The notes beneath the pieces are model-generated. The model had not been told where the DNA came from, searched no databases, and saw only the letters and a list, made by a program, of their open reading frames with translations. Positions 7,711 through 25,988 of a stretch of 64,000 nucleotides of DNA are shown piece by piece. The number at the start of each line of letters is the position of its first letter. Position 1 is the first letter of the stretch. Location: assembly GCA_001786765.1 (NCBI GenBank), contig MFTH01000016.1, forward strand, positions 21,666-85,665, written 5' to 3'. The position numbers and the translations under genes were made by a program. Origin of the DNA: Candidatus Nomurabacteria bacterium RIFCSPHIGHO2_01_FULL_37_25. GTDB lineage: Bacteria > Patescibacteriota > Minisyncoccia > Phycocordibacterales > UBA9973.

Positions 7711-7819
7711 ACTCATAAAATATCAATTTTTTCCGGTACGGATTTTTTGAAGGTTAAAAAATCCTGAAGTTTGCTCGCCGTCGCTCGCAAAACCCCTGCA
7801 AAAATTATATTTTATGAGT
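7711..7819. repeat. family-1 structured repeat, copy B (core 7734-7796, reverse orientation, divergent 5' half)
   Basis: Flanking inverted repeat ACTCATAAAATAT / ATATTTTATGAGT. Core is CGGTACGGATTTTTTGAAGGTTAAAAAATCCTGAAGTTTGCTCGCCGTCGCTCGCAAAACCCC. Confidence 0.8.
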
Positions 7820-14119: not shown

Positions 14120-14202
14120 AAATATCTCATAAATAAAAAACTCAGGTAGTCATAGACTTCCTGAGCTGCTTTCGTCATCTTATATTAGATGACGAAATAA
14201 AT

Positions 14203-14279
14203 GGAGGGGGCACCCTACAACCTAGAGAAGGGGAATCTCTAGGTTTTTCCGTGGGAAATACGGTGCAGGGTACCCTCCC
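14203..14279 (+). ncRNA. candidate small structured RNA / structured leader (unknown class)
   Basis: Long-range helix GGAGGGGGCACCCT (14203-14216) / AGGGTACCCTCCC (14267-14279). It encloses hairpins CCTAGAG-aaggggaat-CTCTAGG (14221-14243) and CCGT-gggaaat-ACGG (14249-14263). It is preceded by hairpins at 14141-14165 and 14173-14194. Confidence 0.3.
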
Positions 14280-14306
14280 ACTTTCGATACTACAAAATCC
14301 AAACAA

Positions 14307-14331
14307 AAAGTAAAGAAAGTTGTCCACAGTT
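14307..14331 (+). repeat. 25-nt direct repeat copy 1 containing a DnaA-box-like 9-mer TTGTCCACA (second copy 14678-14702 with perfect TTATCCACA)
   Basis: AAAGTAAAGAAAGTTGTCCACAGTT versus AAAGTAAAGAAAGTTATCCACAGTT. The two copies are bracketed by inverted AATCCAAAC (14296-14304) and GTTTGGATT (14700-14708). Confidence 0.7.
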
Positions 14332-14745
14332 ATATTTTTAAAAATAAAAAATTCCCAAAAGGGAACCCTTCGGGAATTAGTGGTTTTATTTTAAAAAACC
14401 ACCGATTTTTGTTAGAGGCACCCAGAAGCCCGTTTAGGACAATTCCTAAACGGCGTGGTGCCTTGGATGCCTCTAATTTTTTTAATATACATAAAAATTA
14501 AAAAATCTCAAGCGCTTGTGGGCAACTCGAGACTTTCTCGTGACGTCGTAAACGACGCCGATTTTTTGCCGATAATCAAGTTCCTCCGCATCCCCCTTCA
14601 TCCAATCTTTCGATCAAATGAAGGGGGCGACTGAGGTAGTTGTGGTCGGCAAAGGAAGTATAAAACTAATAAATATAAAAGTAAAGAAAGTTATCCACAG
14701 TTTGGATTTGGTATTATTTTGTCTATGGAATACAATATATATCAG

Positions 14746-14767
14746 GTGGGAAAAAGTGGGAAAAGTG
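14746..14767 (+). promoter_or_regulatory. GTGGG direct repeats resembling MraZ-binding repeats in the mraZ promoter
   Basis: GTGGGaaaaaGTGGGaaaaGTG. Three 5-nt-spaced repeats lie ~70 nt upstream of mraZ, as described for MraZ autoregulation in other bacteria. Confidence 0.45.
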
Positions 14768-14779
14768 TTAATAAAGTAA

Positions 14780-14820
14780 TCCCGACGTAAAGTCGGGACC
14801 CCGACCTAAAAGCGTCGGGG
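14780..14820. repeat. tandem CCCGAC/GTCGGG hairpin pair upstream of mraZ
   Basis: TCCCGAC-gtaaa-GTCGGGA then CCCCGAC-ctaaaagc-GTCGGGG. Confidence 0.8.
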
Positions 14821-14834
14821 TTTAGAAAAAAAAT

Positions 14835-15276: not shown

Positions 15277-15362
15277 ATAACTTTTTTCGGTACGAATTTT
15301 TCGAAGCTTGAAAAATTCTGAAGTTCTCGGCTCGTCAGCCTCGAAACCCCTGCAAAAGTTAT
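15277..15362. repeat. family-1 structured repeat, copy D (core 15288-15350, reverse)
   Basis: ATAACTTTT...CGGTACGAATTTTTCGAAGCTTGAAAAATTCTGAAGTTCTCGGCTCGTCAGCCTCGAAACCCC...AAAAGTTAT. Confidence 0.85.
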
Positions 15363-15384: not shown

Positions 15385-16329
15385 ATGCACAGGACAGTTC
15401 TTTTAAATGAAGTTATAGATGGGTTGAATTTAGGCTCCGGTTCCATCGTCGTAGATGCAACATTTGGCGGCGGAGGGCATAGTCTGGAGATTTGTAAAAG
15501 ATATCCGAGTGTGAGGATAATTGCCTTAGATCAAGATCAAAGTGCTCTCGAAAAAGCCAAAAGTAAATTCAAAGATTCAAATTGTGATGTTACTTTTATA
15601 AATGCGAATTTTAGAGACCTAGATAGGGTGAACTTGGGAAATTTAAGCGTCGTGGGTTCCCTGTCCTCTGGTCTCCGAGGGCGAAGGCGCAAAAATTTTC
15701 CAAGTTCACCCGTAGACGGAATCATTTTTGATTTAGGTTTGAGTTCTGACCAGTTGGAGAATTCTGGACGAGGATTTTCTTTTCAAAAAGATGAACCACT
15801 TTTAATGACTATGAAAGAGAATCCAACTTCCGGAGATGTTACAGCGAAAGATGTTGTAAACACTTGGGGAGAAGATAGTTTAGCCGATATTATTTACGGT
15901 TATGGTGAAGAAAAGCAAGCTCGCAGAATCGCTAAAAGAATAGTGGAATTTAGGAAAAAACAGGAAATTAAAACCACCTTTGATTTGGTAAAAGTAATAG
16001 AAGAGGCGATTCCAGCCAAGTTTCGTAAAGGCAAAATCCATTATGCCACTAAAACTTTTCAGGCAATAAGGATAGCGGTAAATGATGAGTTGGGAGCGCT
16101 TGCCGAGGGTTTGGATAAAGGTTTTAAGTTATTGAAGGTAGGAGGGAGGATGTCGGTGATTTCTTTCCATAGTTTAGAGGACAGGATAGTAAAGAGATTT
16201 TTTAAGAAAAAAGCGGAAGAAAATTTAGCAAAGTTAATTAATAAAAAACCCATTATTGCTAAATTAGAAGAAATAAAAAATAATCCGAGGTCAAGAAGCG
16301 CAAAATTAAGAATTTTATCCCGACGCTAA
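15385..16329 (+). CDS. rsmH: 16S rRNA (cytosine1402-N4)-methyltransferase RsmH, carrying an in-frame ~80-nt repeat insertion
   Basis: VVDATFGGGGHS, VDGIIFDLGLSSDQL, SFHSLEDRIVK. Extra segment NLSVVGSLSSGLRGRRRKNFP relative to RsmH homologues. Confidence 0.9.
   Translation: MHRTVLLNEVIDGLNLGSGSIVVDATFGGGGHSLEICKRYPSVRIIALDQDQSALEKAKSKFKDSNCDVTFINANFRDLDRVNLGNLSVVGSLSSGLRGRRRKNFPSSPVDGIIFDLGLSSDQLENSGRGFSFQKDEPLLMTMKENPTSGDVTAKDVVNTWGEDSLADIIYGYGEEKQARRIAKRIVEFRKKQEIKTTFDLVKVIEEAIPAKFRKGKIHYATKTFQAIRIAVNDELGALAEGLDKGFKLLKVGGRMSVISFHSLEDRIVKRFFKKKAEENLAKLINKKPIIAKLEEIKNNPRSRSAKLRILSRR
15626..15711. repeat. family-2 hairpin element inserted in-frame in rsmH
   Basis: GGGTGAACTTGG-gAAATTTAAGCGTCGTGGGTTCCCTGTCCTCTGGTCTCCGAGGGCGAAGGCGCAAAAATTTT-CCAAGTTCACCC. 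The core is shared with 24905-24970. Confidence 0.85.
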
Positions 16330-23993: not shown

Positions 23994-24893
23994 ATGAAAA
24001 AATTAAGCAAAAAATTAGTAACGCACGATGGATCTTTTCAATCAGATGATATTTTCGCGGCCGCGACGCTTGCTATTTTTCTTGAAAAAGCTGGAGAGAC
24101 TTTTGAAATAATAAGAACTCGAAATCCTGAAATCATTAATACTGGCGATTATGTTTTTGACGTAGGTGGAATATATGATGAAGCTATAAACAGATTTGAT
24201 CATCATCAAATAGGCGGGGCGGGCAAAGGTTTGGACAATATAGACTATGCCGCTTTTGGTTTAGTTTGGAAAAAATTTGGAAAAATAGTTGCTGGGAGTG
24301 AAAAGGTGGCAGGACTTATAAATAAACGTTTAGTTACCCCAATTGATGCTTGGGATAACGGTTTTGATTTGGTTCTTAATAAATATAATGTAACGCCGTA
24401 TTATGTGCAGCACTTTTTTTTGTCGATGGTGCCGACTTGGAGAGAAGAGAATATAACCAACGATGAAATGTTTCTAAAAAGCGTAGAGATTGCAAAAGAG
24501 ATTTTGTTACGGGAAATAATTCATGCGCAGGACTTGCTTTTAGCAGATGAAAAAGTTCTTTCTATATATAACAATACTAAAGACAAACGAATAATTATTT
24601 TAGATAAAAATTATCCTTATGAATATACTCTAACTAATTTCTCTGAACCCCTTTTTGTAATCTATCCCAGAATTAATGACAATTTGTGGGGAGTGAAAGC
24701 CGTTAGGAAAAATCCAAAATCTTTTAGTAATAGAAAAGACTTCCCAAAATCGTGGGCCGGATTGCGAGACGATGAATTGCAAAAAACCAGCGGAGTGTCG
24801 GATGCTGTATTTTGTCACCGAGGATTATTTATGGCTGTAGCCAAATCAAAAGAAGGAGCTATGAAATTAGCTCAAATTGCTGTAAAATCATAG
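23994..24893 (+). CDS. MYG1/UPF0160 family metal-dependent hydrolase
   Basis: THDGSFQSDDIFAAA and FDHH motifs characteristic of MYG1. Confidence 0.75.
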   Translation: MKKLSKKLVTHDGSFQSDDIFAAATLAIFLEKAGETFEIIRTRNPEIINTGDYVFDVGGIYDEAINRFDHHQIGGAGKGLDNIDYAAFGLVWKKFGKIVAGSEKVAGLINKRLVTPIDAWDNGFDLVLNKYNVTPYYVQHFFLSMVPTWREENITNDEMFLKSVEIAKEILLREIIHAQDLLLADEKVLSIYNNTKDKRIIILDKNYPYEYTLTNFSEPLFVIYPRINDNLWGVKAVRKNPKSFSNRKDFPKSWAGLRDDELQKTSGVSDAVFCHRGLFMAVAKSKEGAMKLAQIAVKS

Positions 24894-24981
24894 ACTATGA
24901 GAATGAAAAATTTAAGCGTCGTGGGTTCCCTGTCCTTATGACCTCGAGGGCGAAGGCGCAAGAATTTTTTATTCTCATAGT
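24894..24981. repeat. family-2 hairpin element, intergenic copy (between the MYG1 gene and obg)
   Basis: ACTATGAGAAT-gaaAAATTTAAGCGTCGTGGGTTCCCTGTCCTTATGACCTCGAGGGCGAAGGCGCAAGAATTTTtt-ATTCTCATAGT. The 11-bp flanking inverted repeat differs from the rsmH copy. Confidence 0.85.
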
Positions 24982-24995
24982 CTGTACTATATATC

Positions 24996-25988
24996 ATGGC
25001 ATTCATCGATGAAATAAAAATATATGCGGAAGCCGGCCGAGGCGGGAACGGTGTCGTGCGTTGGCATAGACAGAAGTTTGAACCGAAGGGTGGTCCTGCG
25101 GGTGGAAATGCTGGCCGAGGCGGGGATTTTTATATAAAAGCTGTCCGTGATGCGCACATACTTTCCAAATATAAAGCAAAAAAAATTTTCATTGCCGATA
25201 AGGGGGAAGATGGCGGAAGCAAAAGTTTGCATGGTAAAAACGGAGAAGATTTTATTTTGGAATTGCCGATAGGTTCTGTAATTACGAATATTGAAACTGA
25301 TGAAAAATGGCAATTGATGAAAGAAGGGGAGAAGATTTTACTTTTAAAAGGGGGATATGGCGGTTTTGGAAATGAACATTTCAAAAGCTCATTAAATACG
25401 ACACCCAAAGAGTCCAGAGAGGGAGGGGTCGGGGAAAATGGAAATTTCAAAATAGAGTTAGAACTTTTTGCCGATATTGGATTTATTGGACTTCCAAATG
25501 CGGGAAAATCTTCTTTGCTTAATGCGCTTACAAACGCAGAAGCGAAAGTCGGAAATTATGCTTTCACGACACTCGATCCAAATTTGGGAGACTTTTTTGG
25601 TTTTATCATTGCTGATATTCCGGGAATCATTGAAGGAGCATCTTCCGGCAAAGGTCTCGGTATAAAATTCTTGCGTCATATCAAACGAACCAAAATGCTT
25701 GCGCATTTAGTATCTTTTGAAAATCCTAATATGTTGAAAAGTTATAAAGAGGTTCGTAAAGAATTGGCAAAATATGATACAAATTTAGATTTGGGCGGGG
25801 ATGGTCTGTCTCTAAAAGAAGAAATAATTATTTTAACAAAAACTGACATAGTAGATGATCCGAAAATTATCGCAAAAAAAGTTTCCGACTTTAAAAAGAT
25901 TAGTAAAAATGTTTTTGCCTTGTCTTTATTTGATGACAAAACGGTAAAGAAGTTTCAAGATTCATTGGTCAAGATTTTAAAAAAGTAG
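24996..25988 (+). CDS. obg: GTPase Obg/CgtA
   Basis: MAFIDEIKIYAEAGRGGNGVVRWHRQKF (Obg fold). G-domain GLPNAGKSSLL, DIPG. Confidence 0.9.
   Translation: MAFIDEIKIYAEAGRGGNGVVRWHRQKFEPKGGPAGGNAGRGGDFYIKAVRDAHILSKYKAKKIFIADKGEDGGSKSLHGKNGEDFILELPIGSVITNIETDEKWQLMKEGEKILLLKGGYGGFGNEHFKSSLNTTPKESREGGVGENGNFKIELELFADIGFIGLPNAGKSSLLNALTNAEAKVGNYAFTTLDPNLGDFFGFIIADIPGIIEGASSGKGLGIKFLRHIKRTKMLAHLVSFENPNMLKSYKEVRKELAKYDTNLDLGGDGLSLKEEIIILTKTDIVDDPKIIAKKVSDFKKISKNVFALSLFDDKTVKKFQDSLVKILKK

Follow-up and report, generated by a model that had tools for sequence, protein, structure and literature searches.

The stretch of DNA analysed here, 64,000 nucleotides of contig MFTH01000016.1 from Candidatus Nomurabacteria bacterium RIFCSPHIGHO2_01_FULL_37_25 (hereafter the window), raises the question of how one and the same GC-rich palindromic segment comes to stand in frame within rsmH and again in the spacer between a MYG1-family gene and obg, enclosed at each site by a different pair of perfect inverted arms. 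Both segments belong to a family of dispersed, hairpin-forming repeats found in the Nomurabacteria/Paceibacteria, in the Candidate Phyla Radiation (CPR). Of the two arms, the upstream one is taken from the host and the downstream one is its inverted copy, and at the orthologous MYG1-obg site the core is seen to flip between them. The searched literature holds no description of such an element in CPR, and the family is apparently undescribed so far. The genomes of CPR bacteria are very small and are regarded as poor in repetitive DNA; the present family is maintained in many Nomurabacteria species and forms part of housekeeping genes.

The repeat family and its copies in the window

An earlier note, made from the letters of the window alone, had placed two copies of a conserved core inside rsmH and in the MYG1-obg spacer (15638-15699 and 24905-24970), and both are present with the sequence claimed. 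The core halves AAATTTAAGCGTCGTGGGTTCCCTGTCC and GAGGGCGAAGGCGCAARAATTTT have two exact matches each in the window, on the + strand in both copies (15639-15666/15677-15699 in copy 1 and 24908-24935/24946-24968 in copy 2), against an expectation of 0 from dinucleotide shuffles. A covariance model run over the whole window, on both strands and with filters off, retrieves just these two copies at 85.5 and 84.9 bits, and neither by this model nor by the core-half patterns was a third copy found in the 64 kb. The perfect 12-bp inverted repeat described around the rsmH copy (GGGTGAACTTGG and CCAAGTTCACCC) is exactly as the note had it, whereas the perfect repeat around the spacer copy (AGACTATGAGAAT and ATTCTCATAGTCT) extends to 13 bp rather than 11, beginning within the TAG stop codon of the upstream MYG1. 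Base pairing runs on through the A/T-rich ends of the module, and the stems below the core reach 19 bp in copy 1 and 24 bp in copy 2. The + strand folds at -46.9 kcal/mol (z = -6.5) in copy 1 and -44.9 kcal/mol (z = -7.9) in copy 2; the complementary strand folds more weakly (-38.8 and -31.5, respectively) because several of the stem pairs are G.U.

The wider distribution of the family was surveyed in two censuses, the one using an exact 20-nt core pattern over species-representative genomes and the other a second pattern over metagenomes, in which the 5-bp GC clamp of the core (the P2 helix) was left free. The former recovered 39 loci, with up to six exact-pattern copies per genome, all in metagenome-assembled genomes (MAGs) of Nomurabacteria/Paceibacteria except for one on a short, probably mis-binned contig. 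The latter recovered at least 119 stretches, which were reduced to 137 unique copies, and copy number is about 1-7 per genome or large contig. A scan of viral contigs gave no match, and an origin from a phage or plasmid was accordingly rejected.

Every copy contains a near-invariant, asymmetric, GC-rich core of 43-46 nt of the form GCGTC-GTGGGTYCCCTGTCC-(variable loop)-CTCCGAGGGCGAA-GGCGC. On either side come a semi-conserved A/T stem and then 8-19 bp that are site-specific yet paired. What the sites have in common is a module some 60 nt long, in which an A/T palindromic stem, roughly RAAAAATTT ... AAATTTTTY, encloses P2 and the inner core; with its arms the element measures 85-110 nt, the window copies being roughly 90 nt long. 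All copies of the family fold as hairpins. Over 102 distinct sequences, 95.3% of the cells in the modelled stems are paired and 12 pairs show changes on both sides, values that none of 500 shuffles reached. The second pair of P2 is C-G in 45 of these sequences and A-U in 46, and the fourth is kept as U.G in 80. Stem length beyond P2 ranges from 12 to 31 bp with a mode of 25, in a left-skewed distribution with a sharp upper edge that agrees with growth up to a limit. Scores from the covariance model are bimodal, 54 bits or more against 36 bits or less, with almost no decayed copies in between.

At gathering thresholds, only five tRNAs pass in a search of the window against Rfam 15, and the element itself yields at best microRNA-precursor-like hairpin models, whose 15-21 bits fall short of thresholds of 53-100. 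A known RNA family or ribozyme was rejected on the grounds that Rfam gave only chance matches to hairpin models, permissive thresholds included; inspection by eye for hammerhead, twister, pistol, K-turn and group II domain V signatures found none. A sister repeat family at L032:6894-6965 and L035:2116-2187 has the same long AAATTTTTT/AAAAAATTT stem around a different GC-rich core, TGCCCGAGGGTCCCGCTCGGTACTCCGAGAAGGGCGCAGGGAC. It has GGGT(T)CCC and CTCCGAG in common with the main family, and its apical part is a clean 5-bp hairpin.

Host origin of the arms and inversion of the core

The origin of the arms in rsmH can be read from an insert-free orthologue, L040, which has GAT AAG GTT TTG GGA AAG GAA ... 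GTT GAC GGA where the window has GAT AGG GTG AAC TTG GGA AAT TT[core] ... CCA AGT TCA CCC GTA GAC GGA. From this alignment it follows that the left arm is the native D-K-V-L-G-K region of the gene and that the right arm is without a native counterpart; RsmH orthologues read D-K-V-L-G/E-K at the position of the left arm. At the second site, the element takes up most of the 102-nt spacer between MYG1 and obg. This spacer is 1 nt long in the closest relative recovered, L044, in which MYG1 is 88% identical, and 19 nt long in L046, in both cases with no element. L045, with a MYG1 that is 81% identical, has the element in the same spacer, and its left arm, AATTATGAGAATTAA, consists of the final four MYG1 codons and the stop codon, with the right arm as their inverted copy. 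The otherwise empty junction of L046 has a feature of its own, a tandem direct repeat (two units of AGCCTAGCGCCTA; L046:3400-3447) across the MYG1 stop codon.

Of the intergenic copies, 45 have clear neighbours. In 20 of these the upstream arm runs into the stop codon or the coding end of the gene before it; the start codon of the following gene is reached by the downstream arm in two at most, its ATG usually lying 4-16 nt further on. When copies at orthologous sites are compared, their arms differ, with matching changes on both sides, as seen at gatC-gatA, pheT, an HD-domain gene, the spacer upstream of a comM-like gene and MYG1-obg. Insertion into a pre-existing hairpin or terminator was rejected at both window sites, given the 1-nt spacer of L044 and the ordinary coding sequence, free of any palindrome, of L040. 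The differing inverted repeats that the earlier note had seen around the two cores are hence real, but they are inverted copies of the upstream host flank and not part of the moving unit, and they are the most instructive feature of the two copies, being the mark of how the element becomes embedded.

The MYG1-obg copies of the window and L045 have homologous arms (ACTATGAGAATGAAAAATTT and AATTATGAGAATTAAAAATTT) and cores on opposite strands. These cores are alike at 42 of 44 nt, identical over the inner 34 nt and have a rare loop variant in common, and their two differences make up one compensating P2 pair; the core has flipped at an orthologous site. Reverse-complementing the rsmH hairpin as a whole restores the canonical family reading, RVNLENFCAFALGDQRTGNPRRLNFPSSP, with arms and length unchanged, so that inversion between the arms explains both window copies. 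Among the 137 unique copies, the strand bearing GCGTCG is antisense to the host genes in 40 genic and 51 co-directional intergenic copies and sense in 5 genic and 4 intergenic ones, a ratio of 91:9 in which both window copies belong to the rare (about 9%) flipped form. Under a stricter open reading frame (ORF) criterion, 35 genic copies are antisense and the sole sense copy is that in the window rsmH. Stop codons were rejected as the cause of this bias within genes, open frames being about equally frequent in the two orientations (143 against 132 of 411). A flip brought about by a changed direction of replication was also rejected, the + strand (rsmH sense) being the leading strand alike in the window, L040 and L042 by third-position GC skew, itself weak evidence.

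The hairpin is further marked by strand-specific features. On the GCGTCG strand, G.T pairs outnumber A.C mismatches in the outer stems by 101:24, and this bias follows the core when it is flipped (7:1). In 74 of the 137 copies, the right arm has a single bulged base, in most cases G, 10-11 nt after P2. The parts of the two window copies and their host genes are collected in Table 1.

Table 1. Positions in the window of the two element copies, their parts and the adjoining genes
Feature	Position	Strand	Basis or remark
rsmH (16S rRNA m4C1402 methyltransferase), host of copy 1	15385-16329	+	ORF, 314 codons; aligns to PDB 1M6Y/3TKA
Copy 1, left (upstream) arm GGGTGAACTTGG	15626-15637	+	Native rsmH, encodes R-V-N-L-G; aligns with insert-free L040
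Copy 1, conserved module, 62 nt	15638-15699	+	Pattern and covariance-model matches, family alignment, stem covariation
Copy 1, A/T stem, 5' strand GAAATTT	15638-15644	+	Followed by AA
Copy 1, P2, 5' strand GCGTC	15647-15651	+	Covariation
Copy 1, asymmetric inner core	15652-15685	+	Family alignment
Copy 1, P2, 3' strand GGCGC	15686-15690	+	Followed by AA
Copy 1, A/T stem, 3' strand AAATTTT	15693-15699	+	Covariation
Copy 1, right arm CCAAGTTCACCC	15700-15711	+	Perfect complement of 15626-15637; reads P-S-S-P; absent from insert-free orthologues
MYG1-family gene	23994-24893	+	ORF; homologues carry PF03690; stop codon 24891-24893 overlaps left arm of copy 2
Copy 2, left arm AGACTATGAGAAT	24892-24904	+	Host-derived; homologous to final MYG1 codons (N-Y-E-N-stop) of L045
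Copy 2, conserved module: GAAAAATTT, AA, core 24916-24959, AAGAATTTTTT	24905-24970	+	Patterns, covariance model
Copy 2, right arm ATTCTCATAGTCT	24971-24983	+	Inverted duplicate of left arm; 12 nt, then obg start at 24996
obg, downstream of copy 2	24996-25988	+	ORF; MYG1-obg synteny kept in L044-L046

Copies within genes and the RsmH loop

About one third of the unique copies (45 of 137) lie within ORFs, the host genes including rsmH, pheT, a gene for a CCA-adding-type HD-domain enzyme, and mnmA-like and uvrC-like genes. All the strictly defined genic copies, namely the 35 antisense ones and that of the window rsmH, are stop-free and keep the frame. As many as 34 of the 35 enter in the frame that reads ..AFALG.., a single preference expected only if the inserts are translated, from which we infer that the insert is made as part of the host protein. 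One FAD-linked oxidase-like gene (..LLVGSQGTLGI..) holds two in-frame copies, and both of its sites are filled in two different genomes (L022:162-232 and 621-691; L019:1337-1407 and 860-930).

The window RsmH is 100% identical to an RsmH with Pfam PF01795 from a Candidatus Nomurabacteria MAG, and its ORF runs through the element in frame, in agreement with the earlier note. The gain of about 26 residues given there is too high, the net gain being about 20 relative to the nearest insert-free orthologue (30 against 10 residues from the conserved D to VDG). An alignment of 120 RsmH orthologues, a comparison that the note had itself proposed, shows that the majority are without the insert, the spacing between FR.LD and VDGIIFDLG being mostly 3-10 residues as against 30 in the window protein. 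The surface position also raised there is supported by an AlphaFold2 model, in which the insert falls between the helix at 76-81 and the strand bearing VDGIIFDLG, residues 82-109 are coil and those at 88-106 have a pLDDT (the predicted local confidence) under 50. When the protein is aligned to the solved Thermotoga MraW (1M6Y), a gap of about 19 residues falls at the insert. The modelled coil and this gap place the insert in a tolerant surface loop, which is predicted to be disordered. The peptides encoded by the element match no Pfam family, and a known domain was accordingly rejected as an account of them.

The identical RsmH protein occurs on 15 contigs, and four variants of 98-100% identity from other assemblies (P0002-P0005) have the same insert in the same orientation. 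Many RsmH orthologues have inserts at the same site (..LENFGAFALGDKRTGDPRRLNFLNGP.., ..GQGTHDALN..) that correspond to the window element translated from its reverse complement, and others hold shortened and decayed remnants of it, as well as one nested insertion. In the last of these (L042:10001-10993, rsmH in the genome of P0006), a truncated first element (..LENFGAFA..) is broken by a second, complete one whose P2 helix, GAAAAG/TATTTTC, is altogether different; the arms of this second copy appear to derive from the core of the first. The loop equivalent to window positions 15626-15711 contains unrelated insert peptides, DPVRSRPLEYESATVTSGRPASNG, SPSPGEGETPLHQVTGK and AELPSGSSAPKT, in other Paceibacteria, which may represent further repeat families, and is a general hotspot or tolerant site for inserts. 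The element accounts for variable lengths and for odd segments of low complexity (..NFGAFALGDIGQGTHDALN..) in alignments of CPR proteins, and it can be used as a lineage marker.

Mechanism, affinities and competing explanations

The above observations are best accommodated by a non-autonomous palindromic element comparable to the Rickettsia palindromic elements (RPEs), with arms that are probably built and kept perfect, and a core that is probably flipped on occasion, by template switching. We put the probability of this reading at roughly two in three. Under it, the module would arrive at a site and its stem would be extended to some 20-30 bp as the host sequence immediately upstream is copied in inverted form, the arm being added on arrival or later. 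The most likely route would be snap-back or template switching of the replicating strand across the palindrome, with the A/T stem of the module as seed. This route would also hold the two arms to one sequence while the flank of the host evolves, and would now and then turn the core round, both window copies being flipped descendants of originally antisense ones. Copies in coding sequence would survive only where an additional 20-30 residues are tolerated, and would be translated with the protein.

Template switching between the arms of inverted repeats is known to homogenise the arms, to expand them in some cases and to invert the spacer, also within coding sequence (PMC8604942), and comparable effects on arms and spacers are reported in PMC13100816 and PMC8794818. 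It is favoured here as the most likely cause of the arms and flips because homogenisation, lengthening and inversion are all seen, and because copying from the upstream flank into the downstream arm fits the snap-back of a strand synthesised co-directionally with the genes. The published cases concern unique inverted repeats with spacers of a few bases, whereas the present ones involve a module of about 60 nt from a dispersed family, with arms of 20-30 bp. The family offers more than 130 natural sites, among which arm growth, homogenisation and spacer inversion are readable from filled, empty and flipped orthologous sites, outcomes otherwise known mostly from isolated short inverted repeats.

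In behaviour, the element is closest to the RPEs, which are palindromic repeats standing in frame in housekeeping genes (PMC10969869). Both are short, palindromic and dispersed in small, reduced genomes, with a large fraction in frame and fold-compatible in unrelated housekeeping genes, and both also occur in spacers and are kept at orthologous sites (PMC10969869). In likening the element to selfish repeats of this type, the earlier note was apt as regards behaviour, that is, in-frame palindromic repeats in housekeeping genes (PMC10969869); by sequence the element appears to belong to no described family, and selfish spread is presumed. It is set apart by its host range, the Nomurabacteria (CPR) being an unrelated phylum, by its sequence, for which neither a relationship to RPEs nor an Rfam match was found, and by its size, RPEs being about 150 bp long. 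Further, unlike the RPEs, it has a site-specific outer stem taken from the host flank, a flipping core, a strong orientation bias and far fewer copies.

The repetitive extragenic palindromic (REP) sequences and their paired form, the REPINs, which are associated with the RAYT transposases, resemble the element in being hairpin-forming, non-autonomous and vertically persistent repeats that accompany a single-copy Y1 (HUH) transposase-like gene (PMC3116915 and PMC3337134). A REPIN, however, consists of two conserved inverted REP sequences, whereas here the arms are unconserved and the asymmetric core is conserved; REPINs are extragenic and number tens to hundreds of copies per genome, as against 1-7 copies of which about one third are genic; and RAYT genes are flanked by cognate repeats, whereas the Y1 genes of the present genomes are flanked by other hairpins. 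The MITEs of bacteria (miniature transposable elements with inverted repeats; Correia, ERIC, BOX, RUP and others) are likewise small non-coding stem-loop repeats that are sometimes fused in frame to genes (PMC10969869). What typifies them is terminal inverted repeats specific to the family, a direct duplication of the target site and, in most cases, a parent insertion sequence that can be recognised, but none of the three was found here. Only an A/T-rich stem of about 9 bp is semi-conserved, the outer 8-19 bp being site-specific. No direct repeat is evident at the window copies or in comparisons of empty and filled sites, where a palindromic duplication of 2-4 nt would hide in the stem. Among the copies matching the left-half pattern there is no autonomous full-length version, the right half lying at most 40 nt away with no ORF in the loop. 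The GC clusters of yeast mitochondria are GC-rich hairpin elements that have spread through the spacers, and occasionally the coding regions, of an AT-rich compact genome. The repetitive hairpin-forming elements of sponge mitochondria (PMC2800124) are similarly GC-rich hairpins in AT-rich compact genomes. Both are likened to the present element by description and not by sequence; they are organellar, and without evidence of host-derived arms or a flipping core.

Certain points weigh against the RPE-like, template-switching reading. No transposase, target-site duplication or autonomous relative was found, for which reason mobility is deduced only from dispersal, presence/absence differences and nesting, and copy number is low, at about 1-7 per genome. 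The near-unchanged core at orthologous sites across species is also what is expected of a functional element; the invariance of the inner core across the copies from the exact-match scans is, in part, an ascertainment effect of those scans. The 91:9 bias, though flipping is possible and open frames are equally frequent, suggests that orientation matters, and the G.T excess, the P2 U.G pair and the fixed bulge are strand-specific features beyond template switching alone. They fit the rather unlikely alternative of a host-serving, orientation-dependent hairpin signal, present as single-stranded DNA or RNA and read by a protein in replication, recombination or RNA processing or stability, that is held by purifying selection and would simply be put up with wherever it falls in coding sequence. 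This would account for the orientation bias, for a U.G pair, bulge and G.T preference that follow the core when it flips, for the narrow range of stem lengths, the scarcity of intermediate decayed copies and the reuse of GGGT(T)CCC and CTCCGAG on the same A/T stem by the sister family. It would also account for the elements kept in the same spacers or loops of several species, including the identity of the inner 34 nt between the window and L045, which was found by protein homology and is hence unbiased, despite a MYG1 identity of only 81%. Such a signal is, however, difficult to reconcile with copies scattered over unrelated housekeeping genes and spacers with no common theme, with relatives that appear intact without a given copy (L044 with its 1-nt spacer, and most insert-free RsmH), with truncated and decayed copies persisting in RsmH, with a copy number that varies from 1 to about 7 between genomes and with the absence of an Rfam match. 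The best-folding strand is antisense to the host transcripts, which makes an mRNA-internal role unlikely, and covariation in the stems can come from template switching without selection (PMC8794818). A tentative and doubtful, if more far-reaching, possibility is that the conserved asymmetric core gains "personalised" terminal inverted repeats by copying the upstream flank of its target, at integration or by obligatory snap-back, and is read on one DNA strand as a bulged hairpin, which would make its orientation relative to replication or transcription matter for function. It would then stand either for an integration reaction of a new kind or for a domesticated signal in single-strand DNA that the Paceibacteria have in common. 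If the orientation bias and strand-specific features do reflect function, they would point to a hitherto unrecognised single-strand nucleic-acid recognition system in CPR.

An unlikely explanation is that of a single-stranded DNA element of REPIN or IS200/IS605 type, mobilised in trans by a single-copy RAYT-like Y1 (HUH) transposase that reads the bulged hairpin on one strand. The tolerance of G.T pairs and the fixed extrahelical base would suit such an enzyme, as would the absence of conserved terminal inverted repeats and target-site duplications. Strand-specific bulged hairpins recall those read by IS608 TnpA and the integron attC sites. Y1-transposase-like genes are present in the same genomes, with homologues at nine loci in 1.25 Mb around elements, the nearest 1.2 kb from an element, and one of them passes Pfam Y1_Tnp (E = 8.7e-7, above the cut-off). 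Against this, these genes are flanked by different, small hairpins of their own with 11-bp stems, the nearest element being 1.2-10 kb away; they score 27.7 and 36.8 bits against NCBIfam REP_Tyr_transpos, far under the cut-off of 80; and the window has neither a Y1 gene nor a remnant of one. A conserved GTAG-type motif is lacking, copy number is low and a third of the copies lie within genes. Moreover, if the skew, for which the evidence is weak, holds family-wide, the folding strand of the antisense majority is the leading-strand template, the opposite of the IS608 rule. A Y1/RAYT gene as immediate neighbour was rejected, such genes being non-adjacent, provided with other cognate hairpins and absent from the window. 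Removal or skipping of the insert at the level of RNA or translation, by intron-like excision or ribosomal bypassing, is very improbable. A perfect stem of 20-30 bp would indeed bring the flanks together, and ribosomes bypass GC-rich mobile inserts in the mitochondrial genes of yeast, but the stop-free, frame-keeping genic copies and their shared ..AFALG.. frame speak against it, as does the lack of a match to any ribozyme or intron family. Finally, a lineage-specific RsmH loop under protein-level selection, or an assembly chimera, can practically be dismissed. The loop is hypervariable in length among orthologues, but the same nucleotide module recurs in spacers and many unrelated genes and its peptides are without a Pfam match, while the 15 contigs and four variants from other assemblies that hold the insert rule out a chimera; the intergenic copies and independent assemblies together refute both.

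The RAYT-like Y1 (HUH) genes encode 209-230 aa and stand each at a different genomic position (L040:4708-5355, L032:4921-5550, L042:8440-9132 and L015:1263-1919). The end of each is accompanied by a species-specific hairpin with an 11-bp stem and a 3-nt loop, for example CACTTGGAGGC-AAA-GCCTCCAAGTG, which in L040 and L032 also occurs within the gene itself. A Y1-like gene in L042 occupies the position equivalent to window 14120-14834, in which no remnant is detectable. This stretch of 715 nt, bounded by an aminoacyl-tRNA synthetase gene on one side and mraZ on the other, lacks long ORFs; it contains four hairpins with 11-bp stems (14141, 14171, 14219 and 14429) and has no Rfam match. A further small hairpin, G(A/G)ATTTTT(C/T)GA-NNN-TT(G/A)AAAAAT(T/C)C, recurs at 15294-15318 and 7740-7764 of the window and at L042:2756 and L042:9909. 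One of its copies lies between mraZ and rsmH in the window and L042 alike; a conserved terminator or attenuator is one possibility for this hairpin, a further short repeat another.

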